Origin: an uncultured Armatimonadetes bacterium | GTDB taxonomy: Bacteria > Armatimonadota > Hebobacteria > Hebobacterales > Hebobacteraceae | Assembly: GCA_963716175.1 (NCBI GenBank) | Contig: OY970296.1 | Span: 3,712,001 to 3,776,000, forward strand | DNA length: 64,000 nucleotides | Direction of reading: 5' to 3' | Shown: positions 30,473-56,514 of the stretch, piece after piece | How positions within the stretch are numbered: the first letter of the stretch is position 1 | Layout: every line of letters begins with the position of its first letter | Notes under the pieces: generated by a model | Told to the model about the DNA's origin: nothing | The model's database searches: none | Seen by the model: the letters and a program-made list of their open reading frames with translations, nothing else | Made by a program: the position numbers and the translations under genes

Positions 30473-31129
30473 TCACGATCCCGCGGGACGACGCGAGCCT
30501 TTCCCTCGCCGGCCGGAGCCCGACTTGTCCGCCGTAGCTCCAGCGGAGGCGGACTTGTCCCCAGTGGCTCTAGCGGAGGCGGACTTGTCCCCAGTGGCTC
30601 TAGCGGAGGCGGACTTGTCCCCAGTGGCTCTAGCGGAGGCGGACTTGTCCCCAGTAGCTTCAGCGGAGGGGGATTCCGGCTCGCTCTCCGCTTCTCCTGC
30701 CGGCCAGGCGAAGGCGCGAGGCAGCAGCTCGCTCAGCTCGAACTCCCGGCGGAGATCGCCCCGGCCCACGGAGAGAATGGGGAGTTGAGCGCAGAACTCG
30801 GCCAGCGCCTGGCGGCAGGCCCCGCACGGAGAAAGGGGCCCGGCATCCGGGGTGTAGATGACCAGGCCGTCGAGTTCCGCGTTCCCCTCCGCCACCGCCC
30901 GGAATAGCGCCGCCCGCTCCGCGCAGATGGTCAGGCCGAACGAGGAGTTCTCGACATTGCACCCGGCGAAGATCCGCCCTCGCCGCCCCCGCAGCGCTGC
31001 TCCCACCCTGAGATGCGAGTAGGGCGCGTAGGCCTGCTGGCTCACCTCCCGCGCCGCCGCCAACAGTTCCTCCCACTCCCCGGGCGCGAGCCCGCGGGAG
31101 CTACCGGTCGGCCGCCTCTGGCTTCTCAT
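30473..31129 (-). CDS. cdd: Cytidine deaminase with repeat-derived C-terminal extension
   Basis: AYAPYS, GCNVEN, ICAERAAL, SPCGACRQ, LSELLPRAF. Confidence 0.93.
   Translation of the reverse strand: MRSQRRPTGSSRGLAPGEWEELLAAAREVSQQAYAPYSHLRVGAALRGRRGRIFAGCNVENSSFGLTICAERAALFRAVAEGNAELDGLVIYTPDAGPLSPCGACRQALAEFCAQLPILSVGRGDLRREFELSELLPRAFAWPAGEAESEPESPSAEATGDKSASARATGDKSASARATGDKSASARATGDKSASAGATADKSGSGRRGKGSRRPAGS
30522..30671. repeat. Five tandem copies of a 30-bp palindromic unit within cdd 3' end
   Basis: GACTTGTCC(G/C)C(C/A)GT(A/G)GCT(C/T)(C/T)AGCGGAGG(C/G)G x5; three central copies identical. Confidence 0.95.
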
Positions 31130-32451
31130 CCTCCTCTTCCTCCGGGCTGCGCACCACCCGCACGCGCAGAATGCGATTCTCCGAAACCGCCTCCACCGTG
31201 AACTCCAGGTTCCGCCAGCTCACCTTCTCGCCCACCACCGGAAGTCGGCCCAGCTGCTCGAGGATGAACCCGCCCACGCTGTCGAAATCACCCTCCGGGA
31301 GGGCCACGCCCAGCCGGTCATCAATCTCATCTGTGCTCACCCGAGCATCCACGATCAGCGTATCCTCGGAGACCACGCGCACCGGCTCCGCCTCCACGTC
31401 GTACTCGTCCCGCAGCTCGCCGAAGATCTCCTCCAGCAGGTCCTCGATGGTGACCAGCCCGGCCGTCCCGCCGTACTCGTCAATCACGATCGCCATGTGG
31501 AGGCGGCCGCGCTGCATCAGGCGCAGCACTTCACTCACCTTCTTGCTCTCCGGCACCACCGGCACCGGCTTGCGCGCGATCTCGGCCGCGGTGAGGCCCG
31601 CGCCGTCGCTCTCCAGCGCCACCACGATGTCCTTCGCATAGACGATGCCGATGATGTGGTCCACGTCCTTCTCGTAGACCGGCAAGCGGGAGTAGCCGCT
31701 CTCCGCGCTCACCCGCGCCGCCTCCAGCAGTGTCGCCTTCGCCGGCAGGCAAGCTATGTCGGTGCGCGGTGTCATCACCTCTCGCGCCACCATGTCGGCG
31801 AACTCGATCACGCCGCGGATCATCTCCTTCTCTTCCTCTTCGATCCCCCCCTCGGCCTCCCCCACCGAGACCAGGGCCATCATCTCCTCGTCGGAGTAGC
31901 TCGGCTTGGCCGCCGTCACTTCCCCTCCGAACACCGGAGTCACCAGATACCTGATCAGCCACAGCGCCACCAGATAGAGCACATGGCCGAAGGGCCGGAG
32001 CAGGCTGTGGATGAAGCTGAGCAGGGGTGCCGCGGCCAGGCCCACTGGCTCCGCTCGCCGCATGGCATAGGTCTTCGGCGTAAGCTCACACAGCACCAGT
32101 ATCACCAGGATCATGCCGAGCGCGCTCGAGCGGCACCCAACGCTGGCTGCCTCCGGAGAGGCGAATGGTGAGTTCCGTGGTGTAGGCCGAGGCCACGATC
32201 ACGGAGGCGTTGATCAGGAGTACCAACGAGCTGAGCACCTCTTGCCTGTGCTCCAGCAACCTCTCCAGCCAGCCTGACCCGCGCCGCTTCTCGCTTGCCA
32301 ATTGCCGCGCCCGGCTCAGCTCCACACGCACGAGCGCGGCCTCCGAGAGCGAGCAGAAGGCGAGCAGTAGCAAGCAGACCGCGATCGCTGCCACCTGCCA
32401 GATGTAGGGGCGGAGCGCAAGCAGGAAGGAAGCTAAGCTGGGATCAGCCAT
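31101..32451 (-). CDS. Hemolysin family (CNNM/DUF21-CBS-CorC) protein, apparent frameshift near 32127
   Basis: FCSLSEAAL, ELTPK, AREVMTPR, GYSRLPVY, VIDEYGGTAGLVTIEDLLEEIFG, CorC_HlyC tail. Confidence 0.9.
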
Positions 32452-32481
32452 GGCTGGGCCCACTCTCTCCGGCGCGGGGCC

Positions 32482-46059: not shown

Positions 46060-47238
46060 CTACTTCAGATAAGCACCTATGCTGGCGAAGTAACCCCTCC
46101 AGAAGCTGATCACCACGATCGCGATCAGCAGAGCGACGATCAGGTAGAAGCCGGTGCCCACGACCACCGCGGTCTGCTTCCCGCCCACCTCTGTCTCAGA
46201 TTCATAGTACTCGGCGATCTTCTCCAGCACCCCCTCATAGGAGCCGGTTTGCTCGGCCGCCGCCAGCAGCTCTACCGCCAACGGCGGCACCGCCCGGCTC
46301 ATCGCCACCACCTCCAGCAGACTGCGGCCGGACAGCACCCCCTGCGCCTCCCGCACCAGACTCGCCTCCATCGCCTTGTTGCCGCTGGCCGCGGCCGCCG
46401 CCACCAGCGCCTGATGCACCGGCACTCCGGCGGTGGCCAGCATCTCCAGGGCCCGCGCCCAGCGGGCAGTGGCCATCCGGCGGGCAAGACTGCCAAACCA
46501 GGGGACATAGAGCTTGACCGCGTCGATCGCTTCTGAGATAGGGCCGACGGTCCTCAGTGCTCGCCACCCATACCAGAGCAGCGTGATGGCCACCAACAGT
46601 GGCAGGGAGCGAGTCAACACCAACACCAACCAGGCGCTGAGCCCGCCGAAGAAGAGCGTCTTCGCGGTTGGTATCAGGATCAGCGCAGCCAGCAGCAGCT
46701 TGGGGTAGAAGGTCTGCCAGCGGTAGCTCTGCTCGAGTTGGAAGATCCGGTCGTAGTACTTCGCCAGGCGATCCGCGGTCAGCTCGATCATCCCCGAGGC
46801 CTCCCCGGCCTCCACCACGGCAGCGCTAGTAGGGTTAAAGGCCGAAGGATAGCGGCCCAGCACGCTCGACATGGGCCGCCCGCGGGCGGCCTCCTCCGAC
46901 ATCTCCTGCGCCGCCCGCTTCAAGGTGGGATTGCTGGTCTGCTGAGACAGCACGCGCATCGCCTGGCTCAGGTTCATCCCGGTGGCGAGCAGCACTCTCA
47001 GGGAGGTGAAGAAGATGGCCAGCGGCTTGCTGTTGACCGGGTGGAAGATCGGCCCGAGCACGCTGCGGGCGAACTCTCGCCCTTCCCTGGCTCGGCTGGC
47101 CGCTACCGGCCGGATCGCCACCACGAAGTAGCCCCGCGCCTGCAGCGCCCGCGCCACGACCTGCGCGTTCTCGCCCTCGAGCGTTCCGGTCTCGGTCTGC
47201 CCGGTCGTCTGCCGGGCCTCATAGGAGAACGTCGGCAT
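46060..47238 (-). CDS. pilC: Type II secretion F / PilC platform protein
   Basis: MPTFSYEA, two T2SSF domains (EAGEASG, AAEQTG...LEKIAEYYE), TM segments. Confidence 0.85.
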   Translation of the reverse strand: MPTFSYEARQTTGQTETGTLEGENAQVVARALQARGYFVVAIRPVAASRAREGREFARSVLGPIFHPVNSKPLAIFFTSLRVLLATGMNLSQAMRVLSQQTSNPTLKRAAQEMSEEAARGRPMSSVLGRYPSAFNPTSAAVVEAGEASGMIELTADRLAKYYDRIFQLEQSYRWQTFYPKLLLAALILIPTAKTLFFGGLSAWLVLVLTRSLPLLVAITLLWYGWRALRTVGPISEAIDAVKLYVPWFGSLARRMATARWARALEMLATAGVPVHQALVAAAAASGNKAMEASLVREAQGVLSGRSLLEVVAMSRAVPPLAVELLAAAEQTGSYEGVLEKIAEYYESETEVGGKQTAVVVGTGFYLIVALLIAIVVISFWRGYFASIGAYLK

Positions 47239-47716
47239 CTACCTTCTGCTCTCTCCGCAATCGGGCTGCGATCTCCGCCGCCCGCTCGCCACCAGGCCCC
47301 CTGAGATCAGGGGCCAGCTCCGCCAGCGGAACCATCACGAACGCCCGCTGCCACATCTGGGGGTGAGGCAGCTCGAAGTCCTCGTCTTTCACCTGCTCGT
47401 CGCCCACCAGCAGGACATCAATGTCAATCTCCCGCGGCCCCCACTTCTCTCGCTTTATTCTCCCCAGTTGCGCCTCTATGCTCTTCACCAATCTGAGCAG
47501 TTCGCGCGCGGTCAGCTCTTCCGCGAGTTCCACCTCCACTACCAGGTTCAGGAAGCGCGGCTGCTCGGTGACGCCCACCGGGTCTGTCTGATAGACGCGT
47601 GAGGCGCGCACGAAGTTCACCCCCGGGGCGCTGCGAAGACGAGCCAGGGCATCGCGCAGGTATTGCAGGCGATCTCCCAGGTTGGACCCCAGACCCAGGA
47701 ACGCGCGCCGGCTCAT
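47219..47716 (-). CDS. folK: 2-amino-4-hydroxy-6-hydroxymethyldihydropteridine diphosphokinase
   Basis: FLGLGSNLGDR, FLNLV, WGPREIDIDVL, LPHP, RAFVMVPL. Confidence 0.96.
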   Translation of the reverse strand: MSRRAFLGLGSNLGDRLQYLRDALARLRSAPGVNFVRASRVYQTDPVGVTEQPRFLNLVVEVELAEELTARELLRLVKSIEAQLGRIKREKWGPREIDIDVLLVGDEQVKDEDFELPHPQMWQRAFVMVPLAELAPDLRGPGGERAAEIAARLRREQKVDADVLL

Positions 47717-47765
47717 CTCGTGTCCCGCCTCCCCACAGTTGGGCAGGGGCTTGCCCCTGCCACCG

Positions 47766-49010
47766 CTACTGCTCCCGCTGGTGCGCCCACTGGTGCTCGC
47801 TGCCGGCCGGCGGCTCGTGCTTCGCCCGCACGATAGCATCGGCCACCCGCGCCACCCGCGCCATCTCCTTCACATCGTGCACGCGCACGATGTCGGCCCC
47901 GGCTGCGATGGCCAGGGCCACGGTGGCCGCCGTGCCCTCCAGCCGCTGGTCGGCCGCCACATCGCCCAGCAGCCTCCCGATGGAGGACTTGCGCGAGGTG
48001 CCAATCATCACCGGGCACCCCAGGCAGCGGAACTCACGCAGCCGCCGCAGCAACTCCAGGTTGTGCTCCACTGTCTTGCCAAACCCGAAACCCGGGTCAA
48101 CCACGATCTGATCTCGCGTCAGGCCCGCGCCCTCCGCCCGCGCGATCCCCTCCTCCAGATAGTCGCTGATCTCACCGATCACATCCGCATACTGTGGGTT
48201 CCTCTGCATGTCCCGCGGTGTGCCCAGGATGTGCATCACCACCACGGCTGCGCCCGCCTCGGCTGCGACGGCGGCCATTTGCTCATCGTGATGCAGGCCG
48301 CTGATGTCGTTAACCAGCGCAGCTCCCCGTGCCAGCGCCTCCTTCGCTACCGCCGACTTGTAGGTATCTATGGAGACCAGCGCATCTGCCTCGGCCGCCA
48401 ATCTCTCGACCACTGGCAGCACCCGCGCCAGCTCCGCTTCCAGGCTCACCGGCTCGGCGCCGGGCCGCGTGGACTCCCCGCCCACATCCAGGATGTCCGC
48501 GCCATCCGCGACCATCTGCTTGCCGAGCCTGAGGGCAGCCTCCACATTGCCGTAAAGCCCATCGCCAGAGAAGGAATCGGGCGTGACATTGATGATCGCC
48601 ATGATCAGCGTCTTCGTGCCCAGCGCCAGCTCGCGCCGCCGGCAGCGCAGCACCCGATCCATCGGCTGCAGGAAGCCCTCCAGTGCGGCGCTCATCCGCC
48701 CTCCGGCCTCGCCGCCGATTTGGGAGGCGATGGCGGCCAGCCTCTGCGCCGGGGCCATCACCACCACGTCGGTTCGCTCCGGGTCCTGGCGCCCGGCGGG
48801 CCGCGCCAGCACCGCCAGCCCGGTGGCCTCTGCTGCGGCTCGCCGCAGCCCCTGCGCCTCTTCCAGGCCAAGCGGCCCCACCAGCATCGCCCGCGCCATC
48901 CCCCGGCCCACGATGGCGCGCACCGCCTCCGCATCCGCTCCTCGCGCGTACAGCTCGGCCACCACTTCGTCGGCCGCTACCGAATCCAACACCCGCGCTC
49001 TCAACTTCAC
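47766..49010 (-). CDS. folP: Dihydropteroate synthase with ~130-aa N-terminal extension
   Basis: IINVTPDSFS, DVGGESTRPG, SIDTYK, NDISG, DPGFGFGK, SRKS, VRVHDV. Confidence 0.95.
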   Translation of the reverse strand: MKLRARVLDSVAADEVVAELYARGADAEAVRAIVGRGMARAMLVGPLGLEEAQGLRRAAAEATGLAVLARPAGRQDPERTDVVVMAPAQRLAAIASQIGGEAGGRMSAALEGFLQPMDRVLRCRRRELALGTKTLIMAIINVTPDSFSGDGLYGNVEAALRLGKQMVADGADILDVGGESTRPGAEPVSLEAELARVLPVVERLAAEADALVSIDTYKSAVAKEALARGAALVNDISGLHHDEQMAAVAAEAGAAVVVMHILGTPRDMQRNPQYADVIGEISDYLEEGIARAEGAGLTRDQIVVDPGFGFGKTVEHNLELLRRLREFRCLGCPVMIGTSRKSSIGRLLGDVAADQRLEGTAATVALAIAAGADIVRVHDVKEMARVARVADAIVRAKHEPPAGSEHQWAHQREQ

Positions 49011-49018
49011 GCCCCTTC

Positions 49019-49969
49019 TCACCTTCGCTCCTTCGCGGTCACGCCTTCGGCCTGCCCGGTCAGGGTTTGCCCTCTCCTCCGGTGCCCATACCCCCAGGCC
49101 CACCACCTGGGTGGGCGCAGCTTGATCGTCACCGCGCCATCCCGATCCGTTCTCATCACCTTCGCTCCCACCCGCTTCAGTTCCGCCAGCATCTGCTCCG
49201 AGGGATGGCCGAACTGGTTGTTCGCGCCCACACTGATCACGGCCAGCTCCGGCCTCGCCGCGTCCAGGAATCGCGGGATCGCCGCCCCTTCCGATCCGTG
49301 GTGGGGCACTTTCAGCACCGTGCTGCGGACGCCCTCTCCTAGCCGCGCCATGCGTTCTGCGCCGGTGCGCTCGATGTCTGCCGCGAAGAGCACGCTCATC
49401 GGCCCATCGGTCAGCCGCATCACCACCGAGTTGTTGTTGGCATCGTTCCCGGTGTCACTCAGCCTCGGGTCCGGCGGATTCAGCACCTCGACGCGAATGC
49501 CGTCACCAAGGTTGAGCCACTGCCCCTCGGTGGCACGGCGCTGAGGGATTTTCCGTTTCTGGATCTCCTCCTCCAGGCGCTGGTAGCTCTGGCTCTTCGC
49601 ATCCAGCTCCGGGTCGAGGACCAGCTTCACCGGCACGGCCTCTACCACCGCGGGCAGCCCCCCGATGTGATCGTCATGGGGATGCGTGACCACGAGCACA
49701 TCTATCTGCTTCACCCGCCGCGCCAGCAGCGCAGGCACTACCACCTCCCGCCCCACATCATACCCGCTCGCCTCCTGCCCCGGCAGGCCGCCGCCGTCAA
49801 TCAGCATCGTCCTGCCGCTCGGAGCTTGCACCAGGATACTGTCCCCCTGCCCGACATCGAGCACGGTGATGGTCAGCCCACCTGCAACCTCCCCCCACGC
49901 CACCCACCAGACGGCGATGACCGCGACGAGGAGGAGCAAGAGCAGTAGTCGTTCGCGACGAATCGTCAT
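49019..49969 (-). CDS. ComEC/Rec2-type metallo-beta-lactamase domain protein (stand-alone, N-terminal TM)
   Basis: LDVGQGDS, THPHDDHIGG, NNNSVV, LKVPHHGS, SVGANNQFGHP, RTDRDG. Confidence 0.92.
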   Translation of the reverse strand: MTIRRERLLLLLLLVAVIAVWWVAWGEVAGGLTITVLDVGQGDSILVQAPSGRTMLIDGGGLPGQEASGYDVGREVVVPALLARRVKQIDVLVVTHPHDDHIGGLPAVVEAVPVKLVLDPELDAKSQSYQRLEEEIQKRKIPQRRATEGQWLNLGDGIRVEVLNPPDPRLSDTGNDANNNSVVMRLTDGPMSVLFAADIERTGAERMARLGEGVRSTVLKVPHHGSEGAAIPRFLDAARPELAVISVGANNQFGHPSEQMLAELKRVGAKVMRTDRDGAVTIKLRPPRWWAWGYGHRRRGQTLTGQAEGVTAKERR

Positions 49970-50001
49970 CTCATCACTCTATCGGCGTCTATCTGCGTTC
50001 A

Positions 50002-51661
50002 TCAGCGATTGCCTTGCTCCGGCTGGCTCCGTGCCTCCGCTCGCCTCCCCAACCACCACCCCAAGCCCACCAACCCCGCATACCATCCGATTATAGCAAC
50101 CCAGCTCGGTCTTGCCGTCTCCAGCGACGCGCCGGGGATGGCAGCCACCGCGCTGCTCACCCAGATCATCCACCGAGTAGCCAGGCCGGTAACCCAACCC
50201 GGGACAGCCGCCACCCAGGGTGCGACCACGCCCAGGGCGCAGGTCGCCATGCCCGCGGCCAGCACCACCCCGGCCAGCGGCACCGCCAGCAGGTTGGCGC
50301 CCAGCCCGCCAATGGGCGCCTGGCCGTAATGCCACACCAGGATGGGGAATGTCGCCAACTGGGCCGCGATCGTCCCTGACAGCCCCAGCAGCAGCCACCG
50401 CGGAGGTCCGGGCAGCAGGCGCTCGACCTTCGGGACCAGGAAGATCAGCGCCCACACCGCGACGAACGAAAGCTCAAACCCAGGCTGGAACAGCGCCTCC
50501 GGCTGCGCCGCCAGAACCCCCAGGCCCGCCACCGCCAAGAGCGTGTAGTGGTCAACGTTCAGCCCATGCGCTCGCGCCACCGCGGGCACGCGCCGCAACA
50601 CCAGGGCCGCGCCCACCATCACTCCCATGATCGCAGCCCGGGCCACGGCCTGACCGCCCTCGGTCAGCGCTGCGTAGTAGATCACCACGAGGACCGCGAT
50701 GGCCGCGGCGCTGATTCCCGGCCAGTGCCTCACCCGACCGCGGCCACTCAGGGGCCAGGCCATCTGGCGCTCGACGCGCGACCGCCGCCAGGCCGCGCCC
50801 AGCGCGCCCGGCAGGAACACGAACCCGAACAGCATCGAGACCATAGCGCCGGACACCACCAGCAGATGGATCGTCCCCGCGCGCCGGAAGTCATCGGAGA
50901 TCTCGCTCGGCGGCGGGGTGGCATGCACCCCGAAGATCACGCTCGACGCTACCACCGCGGTTTGCTCCCCGTAGGGTCCAGGAGATGAAGTGCTCCAACA
51001 GACTCAGGGCGCGACGCTGCGCGGCATAGGCGTGAGCCGACACCACCCCGAGACGACCAGGTCCGAGCGGTTGACCGAGGCTCTCAGTCCCCACGGTCAG
51101 CACCGCCGTTACGCCGAGGGAAGCGATGCGACTTGCCTCCGCGTGGCCCCCCGGATTGCGCTCCTCCCGAGGCGCGCGCAACCGTCCCGTCAGCCGCCAG
51201 CGCTGCCCTCGCTGTACCGTGTGCGAGGACCTAAACCGGACGTACACCTGGCCTCCGACCGGCTCGGCCCGCTCTTCCTCCTCATGCTCCTCGACTGCAA
51301 GCACGAACCGCCACCAGCCATCCGAGTACTGCGGCACACCGGCCACCGTACCCACGAGTGTTTGGCCGCCAGGTGGGAGCCGAGAGACATCGGTTCCAGC
51401 CTGCGCTCCCGCAAGCTGGTAGGCCCAGCCGCCGGCCAGCGCCGCCGCGGCCAGCACCACCACTCCCGCGAACACAGGCCGACGTCGCACACCCCAGGCC
51501 ACCGCGCCCAGGGAGGCAGCGATGCCCGCGCCCCATAGGCTCGGGCGTCCGTAACCGGCGGTAAGGGCGATGCCACCAGCGAAGCCCAGCGCAATGCACA
51601 CCAGCGGCCTGTCAGTCAGGTCCCGCATGCCAGCGCTGACCTTCTCCCGCGCCCAGGCCAT
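50002..51661 (-). CDS. comEC: ComEC competence protein (DUF4131 OB + Competence membrane domain), apparent frameshift near 50985
   Basis: RNPGG motif, FRRAGTIHLLVVSG, RAAIMG, GFELSF, NLLAVP. Confidence 0.88.
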
Positions 51662-51738
51662 CCCTCTGTCAACGCGGTCGGAGCGCCGGTGGGCCACCTC
51701 CTATCAGGGAACTCGCCCCCCTTTTGGCCTTATATAGC

Positions 51739-51796
51739 ATCACAGTGCACAAATGCCTGTGATACGTCTTGACATTAGCGCAAAATGTGGCACAAT
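51739..51796 (+). promoter_or_regulatory. Divergent promoter region with inverted repeat
   Basis: ATCACAG-11 bp-CTGTGAT (51739-51763) just upstream of TTGACA (51769-51774) and TG-n-CACAAT (51791-51796); AT-rich island. Confidence 0.55.
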
Positions 51797-51837
51797 ATGT
51801 ATTGGCTACTAATGACGCCAGGCACTGGAGGCCAGCG

Positions 51838-53355
51838 ATGACGAGGAAAAGGGCAGCTAGGGAAGAGACGAGCGAGGACATGGTCAGTCTGGACGAGGCG
51901 GCCGGCGTGCTCGGGGTGAGCCGGTCCACTCTTCAGCGGATGCTGAAGCAGGGCAACGTCCGCGGCTTCAAGGTGGGCCGCCAGTGGCGGTTTCGGCGCG
52001 GCGACCTGGACAAGTTCAGCCGCATGACGCACCCGTCGGCGGCCGCGGTGAACGTGACTGAGCTTGACAGCGCGTTCGCCGACTTCCAGGCGCAGCTGAA
52101 AGGGCCGTCCGAGTTCAAGTTCGATCCCTCCATCCCCGGCTACCCCGCCGCCGAGGAGGAGCAGGCGATTGAGCGGGCGATCAAGGCCATCCTCTTCGCG
52201 GCTGTGGCGGCCGGCGCGACTGATGTCCACATCGACGCCGAGCGCCGCGAGACCGTGGTCCGCCATCGCATAGATGGCGTGCTGCACGAGTTGATGCACA
52301 TTCCGGCCGCGGTCCACAAAGCTCTGGTAGCTGGGATCAAGGTTCATGCAGGCATACCGGTGGGTCAGCCACAGACCAACCAGGACGGGCGCTTCCGAGT
52401 GCGCTGTGACGGCAAGGAGTTCGATCTCCGCACCGCCACCATGCCGGCCATATTCGGGGAGACTGTGGTGATGAGACTTCTCGATCAGAAGGCCTATGTC
52501 CCCACCCTTGACGACCCTCACCTCGGCATGGCGGCGCGGGACCTGGAGCGGTTCAAGCGCGCCCTCGTCGCCCCCATGGGCCTGATCATCGTCTCAGGTC
52601 CCAGCGGCTGTGGGAAGACCACTCTGCTCTATGCCGGTTTGCAGCAAGTGATCGGCCCGGAGAAGAAGACCATGACGGTTGAGGACCCAGTGGAGCTCTC
52701 TTTTCACTGGGCCACTCAGGCCGCGGTGAATGTGAAAGCCGGCTTCACCTATGAGCACGCGGTCAGGGCGCTGATGCGACATGATCCGGATGTGGTTATG
52801 ATAGGGGAGCTGCGCACTCTCCCCGTGGCCGAGATGGCCTGCCAGATCGCTCTCACCGGCCACTTGGTGATGAGCGTGCTACACGCCTCCACCGCGGCGG
52901 GAGCGATTCAGCGGCTCCTCGAAATGGGTGTCGAGCCGTTCATCCTGTCGGAGAGTCTGCTCTGCGTAGTGTCCATGCGCCTTGCGCGAAGGGTCTGCCC
53001 GGAGTGCGCCCAGCCTGATCAGCCACCGTTCCACCTGCTCTCCCCGTTAGCCGAGCGCGCCCGCGCCGGGGGATATGAGCTGCCGGAGGCCCCGGAGTTC
53101 CTGAAGGGAGCGGGCTGTGAGCACTGCCGCGGCGGTGGCTACCGCAACCGCATGGGGCTTTACGAAGTAATGGAACACAGCCCGGAGATTGATCGCCTGA
53201 TCGTCTCCCGCGCCCCGGCCGAGGCGATTCGCGACGCGGCCGTCAAGACTGGCATGACTACCCTCACTGCCGACGGCTTACGCAAGGCCGCCGAGGGGAT
53301 CACCACGGTGGCGGAAGTGGCGCGGCTGCTTCCCCCTGGCCAGCCCGAGGCTTGA
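51838..53355 (+). CDS. Excisionase-like HTH (HTH_17) fused to GspE/PilB-family secretion ATPase
   Basis: VSLDEAAGVLGVSRSTLQRMLKQGNVRGFKVGRQWRF; ATDVHI, QDGRF, Walker A GPSGCGKTT, Asp box TVEDPVE, Walker B VVMIGE, His box TGHLVMSVLH, CPEC/CEHC; GGAGG RBS. Confidence 0.9.
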   Translation: MTRKRAAREETSEDMVSLDEAAGVLGVSRSTLQRMLKQGNVRGFKVGRQWRFRRGDLDKFSRMTHPSAAAVNVTELDSAFADFQAQLKGPSEFKFDPSIPGYPAAEEEQAIERAIKAILFAAVAAGATDVHIDAERRETVVRHRIDGVLHELMHIPAAVHKALVAGIKVHAGIPVGQPQTNQDGRFRVRCDGKEFDLRTATMPAIFGETVVMRLLDQKAYVPTLDDPHLGMAARDLERFKRALVAPMGLIIVSGPSGCGKTTLLYAGLQQVIGPEKKTMTVEDPVELSFHWATQAAVNVKAGFTYEHAVRALMRHDPDVVMIGELRTLPVAEMACQIALTGHLVMSVLHASTAAGAIQRLLEMGVEPFILSESLLCVVSMRLARRVCPECAQPDQPPFHLLSPLAERARAGGYELPEAPEFLKGAGCEHCRGGGYRNRMGLYEVMEHSPEIDRLIVSRAPAEAIRDAAVKTGMTTLTADGLRKAAEGITTVAEVARLLPPGQPEA

Positions 53356-53409: not shown

Positions 53410-53617
53410 GCAGCACTGCAGGGCTAACGCGACCTCAGCCCGTGACGCGCCTGCTTCCGGCCATTCGGCAGTCTGAATGGCGCGAAGCGGGCGCGTTTCC
53501 CTCTCGTGCTGCGGAGCCCACGAGCACTGCTGAATCATAGCGGTGCAAGAACTCGGAGGTCGGGGGCTTCGTCTAACCTTCCAGAGCCAGGGCAGGACCC
53601 GACACGCTCGTGGAGAG
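53410..53617 (+). ncRNA. Candidate structured cis-regulatory RNA (unrecognised family)
   Basis: Multiple nested helices with G-U pairs and alternative pairings over the RBS (see findings). Confidence 0.45.
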
Positions 53618-53625
53618 CGCAGGCA

Positions 53626-55863
53626 TTGACCGCATCACCGACACTACCACCATCAGTGCAGCGCTTGATCGGGGAGAAGTCCCCGGGCGCTGAGGCACAG
53701 GTGACCACGCGGAGCGACCTGGCGCCGGACGGCAAGTTCGGCGAGCAGTGGCTCGCGCTCGCCGGCGATCGCGTGCTGGTCTGCGCGCCCGATGGCGTGG
53801 AGGCGACGCTGCTGGTGGAGCTGCCGCTGGCCGACATCAGCGAGGTGGAGATCGAGAACCTGGTGGGCGGCGCGGTGCTGCGTGCGGTGCTCAAAGACCA
53901 CAAGGTGGACCTGATCGCCTTCACCAACGCGCAGGCGGACGAGTTCGGCCGGGTGCGGTCTCAGCTCGACGCCGCGGCCAAGGGTAAGCCGATCCCGCAG
54001 CCGGAGGTCAAGCCCAAACGCTGCCCGACCTGCGGGCTGGTGCTGGGTGAGGATACCCGGGTCTGCCCTCGCTGCTCGCGCAGAGGGGCGACGCTACGCA
54101 GACTGCTGGGGTATGCGAGACCCTATCGCGGGAGGTTGATCCTGACCGGAGGCTTGATGCTGGCCGGCGCCGCGTTCGGGCTGCTGCCGCCGTATCTTAC
54201 GAAGCTGCTTGTGGATAGAGTGCTGGCCCCCAAGTCGCCGGCGGACCAGTTGTTCGCACGCCAGCACGGCATCAGCCTCTTGGGATGGCTGGTGCTGGCC
54301 CTGGCGGCGAGCAGCATCCTCAGCACCGTTCTCCAGGTGTGGCGCAACCGGCTCACCGGGTGGCTGGGCGGCAGGGTCAGCTTCGACATTCGCGCCACCC
54401 TCTACGAGAAGCTGCAGTGGCTGTCCCTGCGCTATTACGACCGCCACTCCACGGGCGCGATCATCTCCCGACTGACCCAGGATTCGGGCGGAGTTCAGGA
54501 TCTGCTGGCCTTCGGCTTGCCTTTCCTGGTGACAAACCTGATCACGATCGTCGGGGTGTCCGCGGTGATTTTCGTGAAGAACTGGCAGCTGGCGGCGCTT
54601 GCCATCGTCCCCGCGCTTCTGGTCAGCATGGGCACGCGCCCGCTGTGGGAGAAGATGCGGAAGGCCTTCCATGCGTTCTGGTATCGTTGGGGCCGGTACC
54701 ACAGCCTGGTGAACGATGCGCTCAACCGGGTCAAGATCATCAAGGCCTTCTCCCAGCAGCCCATGGAGCTGCAGCGCTACAGCATCCGCAACGCCGATCT
54801 GATGGGCGCGTCGGTGTACGCAGAGCAGACCTGGGGCACCATCTTCCCGCTGCTCTGGCTGCTGATCGGCAGCGGCTCGCTGCTGGTGTGGTACTTCGGG
54901 GGCATCATGACCGTCCACGGCACGCTCACCCTGGGCGACCTGATGATGTTCCTGGGATACCTGGGGATGCTCTACGGCCCCCTGAACTTCCTGACGAACG
55001 TGGTGCAGTGGGTGTCGCGCGCGCTGACTGCCGCGGACCGCATCTTCGAGGTGCTGGACGCCGAGTTCGAGAGCGAGAAAACCAAGGGCGAAGTCGTGCC
55101 CGACCGCATCCACGGCGCGGTGGAGTTCCGCAACGTCGTCTTCGGGTATGAGAAGCATCAGCCGGTGATCAAGGACGTGTCGTTCAAGACGGAGCCAGGG
55201 CACATGCTGGGCCTGGTCGGCAAGAGCGGCGTTGGCAAGAGCACTGTCATCAACTTGCTCTGCCGGTTCTACGACGTAGACGAGGGTGAGATCCTGGTTG
55301 ACGGCATCAACTTGCGCGACCTCTCTCTATGGGCCTACCGGGGCCGGTTGGGCGCCGTGCTCCAGGAGCCGTTCCTCATCGCCGGCACCATCGCCGAGAA
55401 CATCGCTTACGGCAAGCCGGAGGCCAGCTTCGAGGAGATCATGGCCGCCGCCAAGCTGGCGAATGCGCACGATTTCATCGTCAACAAGCCGGATGGCTAT
55501 GACGAGCAGGTCGGCGAGCACGGCCACCGGCTCTCGGCGGGAGAGAAGCAGCGCGTGTGCATCGCTCGCGCCATGCTCCACGACCCCGCTATTCTGATTC
55601 TTGATGAGGCCACTGCGAACGTGGATCTGGAGACGGAGGAGCAGATCCAGCAGGCGATCGCCCGCCTGGTAGAGGGTCGCACCACCTTCGCCATAGCTCA
55701 CCGCCTGTCCACCCTGCGCAACGCCGACAAGCTGATGGTGATGGAGGAAGGGAAGGTGGTGGAGTTCGGCACCCACCAGGAACTGGAGGAAAAGAAGGGC
55801 GTGTACTACAATCTCCTCGACCTCCACCGCAAGACCTCCATGATGGAGGCCGTAGATGGATAG
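53626..55863 (+). CDS. ABC transporter ATP-binding/permease with N-terminal extension and CxxC-CxxC ribbon
   Basis: TTG start after GGAGAG; CPTC...CPRC; ABC membrane domain; GKSGVGKST, LSAGEKQR, ILDEAT, IAHRLST. Confidence 0.92.
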   Translation: MTASPTLPPSVQRLIGEKSPGAEAQVTTRSDLAPDGKFGEQWLALAGDRVLVCAPDGVEATLLVELPLADISEVEIENLVGGAVLRAVLKDHKVDLIAFTNAQADEFGRVRSQLDAAAKGKPIPQPEVKPKRCPTCGLVLGEDTRVCPRCSRRGATLRRLLGYARPYRGRLILTGGLMLAGAAFGLLPPYLTKLLVDRVLAPKSPADQLFARQHGISLLGWLVLALAASSILSTVLQVWRNRLTGWLGGRVSFDIRATLYEKLQWLSLRYYDRHSTGAIISRLTQDSGGVQDLLAFGLPFLVTNLITIVGVSAVIFVKNWQLAALAIVPALLVSMGTRPLWEKMRKAFHAFWYRWGRYHSLVNDALNRVKIIKAFSQQPMELQRYSIRNADLMGASVYAEQTWGTIFPLLWLLIGSGSLLVWYFGGIMTVHGTLTLGDLMMFLGYLGMLYGPLNFLTNVVQWVSRALTAADRIFEVLDAEFESEKTKGEVVPDRIHGAVEFRNVVFGYEKHQPVIKDVSFKTEPGHMLGLVGKSGVGKSTVINLLCRFYDVDEGEILVDGINLRDLSLWAYRGRLGAVLQEPFLIAGTIAENIAYGKPEASFEEIMAAAKLANAHDFIVNKPDGYDEQVGEHGHRLSAGEKQRVCIARAMLHDPAILILDEATANVDLETEEQIQQAIARLVEGRTTFAIAHRLSTLRNADKLMVMEEGKVVEFGTHQELEEKKGVYYNLLDLHRKTSMMEAVDG

Positions 55864-55865
55864 AA

Positions 55866-55904
55866 GCTGTTTCATAACCTTCCCAGGGGAGGTTATGAAA
55901 CAGC
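55866..55904. repeat. Perfect 15-bp inverted repeat hairpin
   Basis: GCTGTTTCATAACCT-9 bp-AGGTTATGAAACAGC. Confidence 0.9.
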
Positions 55905-55980
55905 ACTGCACAACGTCAGGCCGTGGCCGGCGCATTTCATGCGAGGGCGTGGTGCGGCCAGCCAGCAGGTAGGCTATGAA

Positions 55981-56514
55981 ATGGGCTCTAGCCAGCAATC
56001 GCCGCCAACCAAAGAGCCGTCCACGCTTCGCTACCTCGACCCGGAGCAGGTGAAGGTATTCCGGGGCGAGGAGGGCGGGCTCTACGCCACCATTGCGGAC
56101 GAGTTCACGGTGCTCTCGCCCCGCTTCGTCCGCGCCCGCCCCTTGAGCGATCCCGACCGCTATCTGTCCATCCGAGGGCAGGAGCCCGGGGGCAAGGAGT
56201 TCGGGCTGCTTCCCCAGTGGCACCGCCTGGATGGGGAATCGCGCCGGCTGGTGCAGGCCGAACTGGAAAGGCGCTACCTCCATCCCACGGTGGGCCGCAT
56301 CCTATCCCTGAAGGACTACGCCGGTCTCCAGCTCTGCCTGCTGGAGACCGACCGAGGGGTGCGGGAGGTCACCTTTCGCGATGCCCGGGACAACGTGGTG
56401 TACCTGGGGGCCTCGCGAGTGCTGATCACCGATGCTGAGGGCAACCGCTACGACATTCCCGACATCACCGCCCTGGACCGCAAGAGCCGGGCCCTGCTGG
56501 CGCTCATCCTCTAG
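55981..56514 (+). CDS. DUF1854 domain protein
   Basis: VRARPLSDPDRYLSI, ELERRYLHP, ETDRG, ITDAEGNRYDIPD..LDRKSR; usual partner of this ABC family. Confidence 0.85.
   Translation: MGSSQQSPPTKEPSTLRYLDPEQVKVFRGEEGGLYATIADEFTVLSPRFVRARPLSDPDRYLSIRGQEPGGKEFGLLPQWHRLDGESRRLVQAELERRYLHPTVGRILSLKDYAGLQLCLLETDRGVREVTFRDARDNVVYLGASRVLITDAEGNRYDIPDITALDRKSRALLALIL

Follow-up and report, generated by a model that had tools for sequence, protein, structure and literature searches.

A stretch of 64,000 nucleotides from an Armatimonadota contig, referred to here as the window, raises the question of what a PilB/GspE-type ATPase with a DNA-binding-type head is doing opposite comEC. ATPases of the PilB/GspE type are textbook motors of membrane machines, with the N1 domain serving as the handle by which the motor is attached. 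The HTH-bearing ATPase also bears on the question, raised for phyla other than Firmicutes, of what handles DNA on the cytoplasmic side of ComEC. The initial annotation offered two readings of the protein, namely a DNA-coupled pilus motor for natural transformation or an ATPase repurposed as an oligomeric transcription regulator. The features to which we refer are as follows:

51838-53355, plus strand: codes for the PilB/GspE-type ATPase of clade A, 505 aa, HTH_17 + T2SSE (ORF call, Pfam, NCBIfam)
51883-52017, plus strand: excisionase/MerR-type winged HTH, residues 16-60 (Pfam, NCBIfam, AF2)
52150-53325, plus strand: N2 + C-terminal ATPase core, PilB/GspE-type (profile, motifs, structure match)
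51769-51796, plus strand: sigma-70-like promoter of the ATPase gene (TTGACA, 16 nt, TG-CACAAT)
51737-51763, no strand assigned: upstream element, candidate operator or UP element (partial conservation)
50002-51628, minus strand: comEC core (DUF4131 + Competence), the genome's only comEC
50891-51697, minus strand: DUF4131 ORF of comEC (Pfam)
50002-50955, minus strand: Competence ORF of comEC (Pfam)
49019-49969, minus strand: stand-alone metallo-beta-lactamase (MBL) gene, ComEC type, with its own membrane helix
47766-49106, minus strand: folP, between the MBL gene and pilC
47219-47839, minus strand: folK, between the MBL gene and pilC
46060-47238, minus strand: orphan pilC with two T2SSF domains and three predicted membrane helices

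The core of the protein is complete. The Pfam family T2SSE (PF00437) matched residues 105-496 with an E-value of 5e-104 and 348.2 bits, compared to a gathering score of 24.9, and the alignment spanned profile positions 2-370 of 370. Walker A (K260/T261), the Asp box (E282/D283/E286), Walker B (D316/D318/E324), the His box (H342/H349) and the tetracysteine zinc site (C387/C390/C427/C430) are all present in the window's own translation. Since every catalytic residue is kept, this ATPase and several of its orthologs may, judging from their sequences, have retained ATP hydrolysis. The AF2 model has a mean pLDDT of 87.5, and in a structure search its core matched solved PilF, PilB and GspE with TM scores of 0.85-0.90 on target. 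The protein's scores stay under the thresholds of the NCBIfam equivalog models for PilB (TIGR02538, 373.9 vs 675.65), GspE (TIGR02533, 387.9 vs 630.25), TfpB (NF053534, 344.2 vs 850) and ComGA (NF041000, 208.2 vs 300 bits, with an alignment covering residues 117-383). Five other PilB-type ATPases, each with an ordinary N-terminus, are encoded in the same genome, and 4 of the 5 adjoin a pilC of their own. Two PilB-type genes are unpaired, the HTH-bearing one in the window and one at 3.49 Mb; two pilC genes are likewise unpaired, that of the window and one at 1.80 Mb.

No N1, GSPII, MshEN or GSPE_N1E family was found in the protein by Pfam at E ≤ 0.01, and HTH_17 occupies that place. HTH_17 (PF12728) matched residues 16-60 (E 8e-13, 48.9 bits vs a cut-off of 27) and the NCBIfam excisionase-family domain TIGR01764 matched residues 17-60 (47.9 bits vs 28.8). 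Thus the architecture described in the initial annotation is upheld, including an HTH within residues 15-65, its fusion to a PilB/GspE core with both domains far above the Pfam cut-offs, the intact ATPase motifs and the missing N1/MshEN domain. A basic tail (MTRKRAAR) precedes the HTH, residues 1-65 have a net charge of +7, and the modeled topology is strand-helix-helix-strand-strand-helix. The nearest solved folds identified by Foldseek were RdfS, Pukovnik Xis, BldC, RacA and GlnR, with E-values for the first four between 3e-3 and 3e-2, values that are weak for a domain of this small size. RdfS was the best match both by sequence (E 0.009) and by structure (E 3e-3, probability 1.0). RacA, BldC and GlnR were solved with DNA, the excisionases RdfS and Xis standing alongside. 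Among the Foldseek rows are also the type IV secretion system protein TraN and structures whose titles name viral DNA-packaging motors. Residues S28, T31, R34, G47, Q49, W50, R51 and F52 are invariant across clades and, with the charge of residues 1-65, hint indirectly at DNA binding; these residues represent the general HTH_17 signature and are therefore uninformative with respect to sequence-specific reading of DNA.

The ATPase gene and comEC share a control region of ~209 bp (51629-51837). The ATG start codon at 51838 is preceded by GGAGG at 51827-51831, and one sigma-70-like promoter site was found compared to 0.3 expected, its hexamers being kept in 8 of 8 orthologous upstream regions. 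Among these same 8 regions, a GCAT..CA(A/C)AAT stretch at 51737-51763 is partly conserved. It is overlapped by a window-specific inverted repeat, ATCACAG-N11-CTGTGAT, that is at most a weak candidate because its arms vary in close relatives. The repeat lacks conservation, and the control region yielded no clear operator.

Facing the ATPase gene is a minus-strand run, comEC-MBL-folP-folK-pilC-panC. The pilC gene, part of this divergent operon, lies 4.6 kb from the ATPase start, and none of the genome's 71 prepilin N_methyl matches falls inside the 64-kb window, bearing out the earlier description of an orphan pilC at about that distance with no pilins nearby. The comEC gene and the separate MBL gene reported previously are likewise both present, but in the window a single additional base at 50981 puts the two parts of comEC in different frames. 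This base is absent from the contigs of 4 of 4 public runs, and without it comEC forms a 541-aa ORF compared to 539 aa in relatives. In every relative examined, the MBL gene has an ORF to itself. GC content is uniform over the region, and no integrase or recombinase family was seen among the scanned neighbors of the ATPase gene.

The head-to-head arrangement with comEC that was first noted in the window recurs in all 8 orthologous loci having upstream DNA (the window, G058, G169, G265, G083, G251, G115 and metagenome contig L145), spanning 5 genera and the one metagenome contig. The other flank of the ATPase gene varies, being an ABC transporter in the window, L144, L145 and G045, and a nitroreductase in G058. 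The comEC-MBL-folP-folK-pilC-panC run is kept in G058, G169, G265, L145 and G151, and wherever the flank is long enough to tell, in these five loci and the window, comEC is accompanied by pilC (6 of 6). G151, which belongs to the same family as the window's organism, carries the comEC-pilC run without the HTH-bearing ATPase gene, so that any control exerted by the ATPase is not obligatory. The comEC linkage is limited to one clade in one family; the neighborhood is conserved in the window's clade, but for 9 of 9 distant members, neither pilus genes nor comEC lie nearby.

In a tree built from the ATPase core alone, 151 of 151 HTH-bearing tips lie in one clade of 160, and on the strength of this phylogeny the fusion is shown to have arisen once. 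The view of the architecture as one of a kind fails because it is common and already labeled automatically in databases: the HTH_17 + T2SSE combination is confirmed, not as a single case but spread over many Armatimonadota families. That the fusion is undescribed still holds, insofar as we found no account of it in the literature searched, and the family is apparently unstudied and sizeable. In clade D, 9 of 9 loci have no T2SSF, pilin or comEC neighbor, the neighbors being GGDEF-EAL, TypA or two-component genes. In the sister clade of the window's group, clade B, the ATPase is paired at 9 of 9 loci with a 242-aa T2SSF-like (PilC-like) protein with no predicted membrane helix, and P0117 combines T2SSF-like, HTH and T2SSE parts in one protein, again with no membrane helix. 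In clade A, that of the window, only 38 of 83 proteins retain E at the position of the Walker B glutamate; the remaining 45 bear D (15), T (11), A (7), N (5) or others (7), and the comEC-linked ortholog in G058 is among those with N. At the same position, E occurs in 38 of 39 clade D proteins and in all 5 canonical PilBs of the window's genome.

We tentatively favor, ahead of the alternatives discussed below, the view that the protein is an oligomer that resides in the cytoplasm, binds DNA in a nucleotide-dependent manner and is tied to the ComEC/PilC module, most likely as its local regulator. In this protein, the excisionase/MerR-type winged HTH replaces N1, the domain that docks motors of this type to the pilus or secretion machine, and the ATPase would be a DNA-binding cytoplasmic assembly, probably a hexamer and dependent on nucleotide, instead of a conventional pilus extension motor. 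In the window's lineage it would most likely bind the region shared with comEC and set transcription of both the comEC/pilC operon and its own gene, with the ATP-bound state of the PilB-type core acting as the switch. Support comes from the strong HTH_17 and T2SSE matches with no N1 family found; from the excisionase fold of the HTH, with DNA binders nearest in structure and a charge of +7; from divergence from comEC in 8 of 8 loci, the classic geometry of a regulator; and from the conserved promoter and upstream element. It comes likewise from the five other, ordinary PilB-type ATPases of the genome and from the precedent of Myxococcus PilB, which, according to a section on further regulatory roles of PilB in a review (PMC11656802), takes part in exopolysaccharide regulation, an output altered by active-site mutations. 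A conventional pilus motor is disfavored because clade D is solitary, the clade B partner (like P0117) has no predicted membrane helix and clade A has often lost the Walker B glutamate. Family-wide evidence thus leans toward the second of the two original readings, a repurposed oligomeric regulator or cytoplasmic DNA binder, and away from the DNA-coupled pilus motor. Against a regulator, T2SSE-family ATPases are not known to serve as transcription factors, a motor core of 400 residues with a zinc site would make a heavy sensor, the window's ATPase and several orthologs keep every catalytic residue, no clear operator accompanies the unconserved inverted repeat, G151 does without the ATPase gene, and folP, folK and panC are odd targets for a competence regulator. 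Moreover, a motor reading fits as well given the orphan pilC in the facing operon and the T2SSF-type partners found in clade B and P0117.

The strongest alternative, which we consider possible although less probable, is that the protein is the assembly ATPase of a competence-type (pseudo)pilus, paired with the orphan PilC, and that its HTH serves either to autoregulate the gene or to hold DNA close to where uptake occurs. The complete PilB-type core and its structural match to PilF/PilB/GspE suit this role, as do the persistence of pilC with comEC in 6 of 6 loci, the T2SSF-type partners kept in the family and, by elimination, the two unpaired PilB-type and two unpaired pilC genes of the genome; ComGA of Firmicutes likewise has no N1. 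However, 45 of 83 clade A proteins, among them the G058 ortholog linked to comEC, no longer have the Walker B glutamate, there is no N1 domain for docking to a PilM/GspL-type stator, the window has no pilin gene, G151 carries pilC and comEC without the ATPase, and the ComGA, PilB and GspE scores fall short of equivalog level. It appears unlikely that the HTH is instead a protein- or ligand-binding adaptor with a general cytoplasmic role unrelated to DNA uptake, the comEC adjacency being a lineage-specific accident of gene order. The restriction of the comEC link to one clade of one family, its absence in 9 of 9 distant members, the empty site in G151 and the generic nature of the invariant HTH residues are consistent with an adaptor, but the adjacency is kept over 5 genera and a metagenome contig while the other flank varies, RacA, BldC and GlnR were solved with DNA, and the HTH and its tail are strongly basic. 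Still less probable is a DNA-handling motor of the uptake pathway, in which a PilB-type hexamer would sit on DNA via six HTH heads and pull or hand over incoming DNA at ComEC. ComFA fills that role in Firmicutes, and we know of no protein assigned to it in most other phyla. The position beside the genome's only comEC, the DNA-binding-type head on a hexameric ASCE ATPase and the occurrence of the same small HTH fold in DNA-moving machines (TraN and the packaging-motor entries) argue for such a motor; the frequent loss of the Walker B glutamate in clade A argues against it, and the presumed partner of PilB-type rings is PilC, not DNA. A broader version, which we regard as similarly improbable, is that a PilB-type branch left the membrane machine to form DNA-bound cytoplasmic rings, the clade A ring being the missing motor or hand-over device at ComEC and the sister clade with its soluble PilC-like "rotor" being a free-standing, membrane-less PilB-PilC engine on DNA.

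A part of a mobile element or defense island is by far the least probable of the explanations considered, although the excisionase-type HTH and the neighboring ABC ATPase match MADS defense models (PADLOC mad1 to the HTH, 28.4 bits; PADLOC mad3 to the downstream ABC protein, 100.8 bits; NCBIfam MAD1, 38.5 bits, below its cut-off of 80). These matches reach no further than the generic HTH and, in the next gene, the generic ABC ATPase region; the window's neighbors include no integrase, methyltransferase or further MADS component; synteny is chromosomal and stable across genera; and GC content is even. We rejected membership in a MADS system on the basis of the MAD1 score and the limited PADLOC matches, and a true excisionase (recombination directionality factor) on the basis of the stable chromosomal synteny and the lack of an integrase or recombinase among scanned neighbors, with no attachment site close by.

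Taken together, these findings describe a monophyletic PilB-type family that traded its N1 handle for a DNA-binding-type head. They suggest that the motor chassis is reusable away from the pilus, because N1 was swapped, the catalytic glutamate was often dropped and a PilC-like partner has no membrane segments. The window's clade, fixed to the only comEC operon, is a concrete candidate for the control or power of DNA uptake in the understudied Armatimonadota. We know of no T2SSE-family ATPase that acts as a transcription factor; if this one is a plain regulator, it would be the first, as far as is known and as far as the literature searched extends.

Compared to known systems, the ATPase resembles PilB/PilF/GspE (5oiu, 5tsh, 5it5, 1p9w and 4ksr) in its N2 and C-terminal core (37-39% identity) and in its Walker A, Asp box, Walker B, His box and four-Cys zinc site. 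Assembly ATPases bear a GSPII N1 domain, as stated in the PilB review (PMC11656802). Unlike PilB/GspE, the window's ATPase has HTH_17 in place of N1/GSPII/MshEN, appears to lie outside a pilus gene cluster, scores below the PilB, GspE and TfpB equivalog cut-offs and belongs to a clade often lacking the Walker B glutamate. ComGA, the competence pseudopilus ATPase of Firmicutes, is likewise PilB-type without N1 and is linked to DNA uptake; in contrast to the window's ATPase, it has no DNA-binding domain, and it is encoded in the comG operon with pilins. The 208.2 bits on NF041000, compared to 300, also set the two apart. Myxococcus xanthus PilB offers a case in which the active-site state of a PilB-type ATPase influences a process besides driving the pilus (PMC11656802, which also lists among its references a paper whose title presents PilB as a signaling protein), although that protein is still a pilus motor with N1 present and no DNA-binding domain. 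The bacterial enhancer-binding proteins NtrC and FleQ join an oligomeric ASCE ATPase to an HTH and couple nucleotide state to transcription (PMC10333796). Their likeness to the window's ATPase is a works-like analogy only, since they belong to the AAA+ sigma-54 activator family, which had no Pfam match in the window's ATPase, and carry the HTH at the C-terminus. Finally, the HTH shares its small winged fold with RdfS (8dgl), Pukovnik Xis (4j2n), BldC (6ama), RacA (5i44) and GlnR (4r4e), but whereas those proteins are small and stand-alone or differently fused, the HTH in the window heads a 400-residue motor-type ATPase.

Domain searches agree with the initial annotation, which had described an HTH joined to a complete pilus ATPase in a single ORF, without an N1/MshEN domain. 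Pfam placed HTH_17 at residues 16-60, within the proposed interval of 15-65 (E 8e-13, 48.9 bits against a cut-off of 27), and T2SSE at residues 105-496 (E 5e-104), and returned no N1/MshEN-type family at E <= 0.01. NCBIfam placed the excisionase-family domain TIGR01764, over cut-off, at residues 17-60, and on the remainder of the protein the GspE, PilB, TfpB and ComGA models scored 387.9, 373.9, 344.2 and 208.2 bits, each under its equivalog cut-off (630.25, 675.65, 850 and 300, respectively). The translation keeps Walker A (K260/T261), the Asp box (E282/D283/E286), Walker B (D316/D318/E324), the His box (H342/H349) and the four cysteines. The gene and its surroundings, in a window of ~67% G+C throughout, are as follows.

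Features of the HTH-ATPase locus (window coordinates)
46060-47238, minus strand: pilC
49019-49969, minus strand: ComEC-type MBL gene, separate
50002-50955, minus strand: comEC, Competence part (ORF and Pfam)
50891-51697, minus strand: comEC, DUF4131 part (ORF and Pfam)
51737-51754: upstream stretch GCAT..CA(A/C)AAT, partly conserved in eight orthologous regions
51739-51763: inverted repeat ATCACAG-N11-CTGTGAT, 7-bp arms
51769-51796, plus strand: sigma-70-like promoter TTGACA-16 nt-TG-CACAAT, 1 site against 0.3 expected
51827-51831, plus strand: candidate ribosome site GGAGG, ahead of ATG 51838
51838-53355, plus strand: HTH-ATPase gene (ORF, 505 aa)

Since ATG 51838 is preceded by GGAGG and the promoter-like site, and database relatives are equal in length to the window protein, it is likely the start codon. 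The -35 and extended -10 hexamers are common to the eight orthologous upstream regions. The inverted repeat was dropped as an operator because its arms vary in close relatives and are unconserved across the orthologous regions. P0005, which the database marks as the window's own protein, carries two substitutions relative to the window translation (406, E/D; 409, R/H); it is either a near-identical relative or the representative of a cluster.

AlphaFold2 modelled the HTH-ATPase, from an alignment of 55 sequences (A1), with a mean pLDDT of 87.5. The modelled core resembles Thermus PilF, Geobacter PilB and Vibrio GspE (TM 0.85-0.90 on target, 37-39% identity), while residues 15-62 were modelled as strand-helix-helix-strand-strand-helix. 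Modelled alone, the N-terminal domain reached pLDDT 78-88 in its core, and its closest solved folds were RdfS excisionase, Pukovnik Xis, BldC, RacA and GlnR, with E values of 3e-3 to 3e-2 at probability 1.0, weak as expected at ~50 residues. RacA, BldC and GlnR are structures solved with DNA, and by sequence, too, RdfS came out best among the solved structures (E 0.009). The net charge of residues 1-65 is +7. For residues 100-505 of the HTH-ATPase (core; alignment A1) paired with the first 180 residues of the window PilC (alignment A3), complex prediction scored 0.00 in both runs, with the controls not folded, and weighs neither way on binding.

The minus-strand genes run in the order comEC, MBL, folP, folK, pilC and panC, facing away from the HTH-ATPase. 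This comEC is the only Competence-domain gene in the genome; ComEA-like and DprA genes are present elsewhere in it. Its two ORFs lie in different frames and overlap. One base, at 50981, is missing from the contigs of 4/4 public metagenome runs (four studies), and without it comEC becomes a single 541-aa ORF beginning at ATG 51628, compared to 539 aa in relatives; we therefore rejected a true pseudogene as the default. Because the same +1 offset also splits panC (45575/45592) and a CNNM gene (32086-32463 / 31101-32114) in the window, single-base insertion errors in the assembly are the probable cause, although a strain-specific mutation in comEC is conceivable. The stand-alone MBL gene is real: all relatives examined encode it as an ORF of its own, in a different frame.

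We refer to the window's subgroup of the HTH_17+T2SSE family as clade A (83 sequences). Among the genomes searched, an N-terminal query found clade A only in the window's own taxonomic family, in 7/15 genomes plus one contig-edge fragment. The claimed divergence from comEC holds throughout, the clade A gene being head-to-head with comEC in 8/8 loci having upstream DNA (the window, relative genomes G058, G169, G265, G083, G251 and G115, and metagenome contig L145), and the full run through panC is kept in G058, G169, G265 and L145. Between MBL and the comEC core, three of these loci carry an extra gene of 286-352 aa (L044:12567-13625, L045:12597-13457 and L046:12751-13695); it starts with a zinc ribbon in L044 and is absent from the window and L145. 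In one further relative genome of the same taxonomic family, G151 (82% complete), the run is also present (L223, G151:C139, 7773-10297), but there a nitroreductase gene stands head-to-head with comEC in place of the HTH-ATPase, and the N-terminal query found no clade A gene in this genome. Going by G151, the HTH-ATPase is dispensable for the run.

The far flank of the clade A gene is variable. In the window (53506-56514) it holds a fused ABC transporter of 785 aa, whose N-terminal ~200 aa are unassigned, together with a DUF1854 gene. Both are shared with L145, and neither gene is found in G058 or G169; the ABC gene also lies 3' of the HTH-ATPase in L144 and G045, whose contigs end there. The match of PADLOC mad3 to the ABC ATPase part (100.8 bits) is probably generic.

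Linkage to comEC does not extend across the whole family. At the nine clade D loci examined we found no pilus or comEC neighbours, the neighbouring genes being GGDEF-EAL, TypA or two-component genes; thus the linkage noted by the initial annotation stands for clade A and is absent at these clade D loci. Clade B includes the second HTH_17+T2SSE copy of this genome (contig C1).

C1:1630292-1631788, minus strand: clade B gene
C1:1630292-1632529 (= L013:9292-11529), minus strand: clade B gene with its 242-aa T2SSF-like gene

The T2SSF-like gene directly precedes the clade B gene in 9/9 loci. Its product has no predicted membrane helices, compared to three in the window PilC, and an ESM Atlas look-up of this soluble protein returned only generic T2SSF clusters. 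The metagenome protein P0117 (800 aa, no predicted membrane helix) carries T2SSF-like, HTH_17 and T2SSE domains in one chain, in the gene order of the clade B pair, and so ties the ATPase, in Rosetta-stone fashion, to a PilC-like partner that is soluble.

The glutamate of the canonical VGEIRD motif (Walker B) is catalytic. We compared this and other conserved residues across the clades and the canonical PilBs of the genome.

Conserved residues by clade
Walker B glutamate: clade A, E 38/83 (D 15, T 11, A 7, N 5, 7 others); clade B, E 1/8 (D or A 7/8); clade D, E 38/39; canonical PilBs, E 5/5
Walker A lysine: clade A, K 82/83; clade B, R 6/8; clade D, K 39/39; canonical PilBs, K 5/5
Second His-box histidine: clade A, H 80/83; clade B, L 6/8; clade D, H 34/39; canonical PilBs, H 5/5

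The four cysteines are invariant in all sequences compared. Glutamate losses are dispersed across clade A and include the comEC-linked ortholog in G058, which has N; all of these residues are intact in the window's HTH-ATPase. Judged from these substitutions and the helix predictions, the clade B proteins resemble a PilB-PilC pair that is catalytically degenerate and membrane-free.

The fusion is not a one-off. A protein search yielded over 85 clusters with PF12728 and PF00437 (identity 51-89%), the few with source names being from Armatimonadota, and among 301 genomes of the phylum, matches covering the HTH (start within the first 14 residues) occurred in at least 10 families. A second group, at ~42% identity, combines Clp_N, HTH_17 and T2SSE in 633-659 aa; two Clp_N repeats precede HTH_17 and T2SSE at L047:8763-10730 and L048:9256-11166 and in ~20 clusters (P0093-P0118). 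Among the best 150 matches from a representative library (50% identity, 1.84 billion proteins), 31 start their alignment no later than profile position 16 and 19 pass a strict wing-motif test. Heading this search were tandem double ATPases (P0125-P0138), ~980-1050 aa long, in each of which T2SSE matches twice. When genome contigs were searched with a single protein query, most hits were ordinary PilB genes from other phyla and 1/80 loci (L064) covered the HTH; a metagenome-contig search with alignment A1 gave three HTH-bearing loci (L144, L145 and L146) among the 79 listed. The ESM Atlas contains HTH_17+T2SSE clusters in which Planctomycetota is the commonest known phylum, which is a lead only. 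The taxonomic range is thus based on the few source names, the phylum-level genome search and this lead.

In a tree of the core only (residues 105-500; 263 sequences, 103 of them without HTH), 151/151 motif-positive HTH tips fell within one clade of 160 (support 0.857), and the fusion therefore has one origin. Of the nine motif-negative tips in this clade, at least two (D_L058 and B_L056) bear the HTH by other searches; P0152 (409 aa) aligned from profile position 109 only.

The genome, a single 4.56-Mb contig, encodes seven PilB/GspE-type proteins, five with ordinary long N-termini and two with an HTH. Four of the five ordinary PilB genes adjoin a pilC of their own. Left unpaired are one PilB gene (3.49 Mb), one pilC (1.80 Mb) and, in the window, both pilC and the HTH-ATPase. 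The pilC of the comEC-folP-folK run is therefore an orphan, as claimed. The reported lack of pilins nearby was also confirmed, with 0/71 of the genome's N_methyl prepilin matches inside the window. These 71 matches, mostly heading open frames of ~330-400 aa, make a very large prepilin-like set for a genome of this size.

The anatomy of the HTH-ATPase is certain; its mechanism we infer. We tentatively favor a cytoplasmic oligomer whose DNA binding would depend on nucleotide and whose target would be the control region shared with the comEC/pilC operon. Divergent geometry and the missing docking domain argue for such a regulator-type role, as do the isolated position of distant family members, the sister clade's soluble PilC-like partner and the relaxed catalytic glutamate. 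The same protein might instead serve the orphan PilC as a true assembly ATPase, a less likely yet credible reading given that the window protein is catalytically complete and that the family still keeps T2SSF-type partners.

The other readings are each less likely than an assembly ATPase. An adaptor role unconnected with DNA uptake is improbable, and a DNA-handling motor at ComEC still more so. Since no integrase lies among the neighboring genes scanned and the defence-model matches are confined to the generic HTH and ABC ATPase parts, we rejected a mobile or defence element, which we consider very improbable. The nucleotide-dependent DNA-binding oligomer accordingly remains our preferred, if tentative, reading.

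Existing automatic database labels for these proteins are 'excisionase family DNA binding protein' and 'GspE/PulE family protein'. In the main texts of openly available papers, we found neither a description of an HTH-PilB/GspE fusion nor a functional study of the family. The parts of PMC4989314 and PMC10333796 consulted contain nothing bearing on the fusion, and the term 'DNA-binding' is absent from the main text of a 2024 PilB review, which gives N1 as the standard N-terminal domain (PMC11656802). In sum, the HTH-ATPase is genuine and conserved, a variant of a known ATPase family that has apparently gone undescribed.
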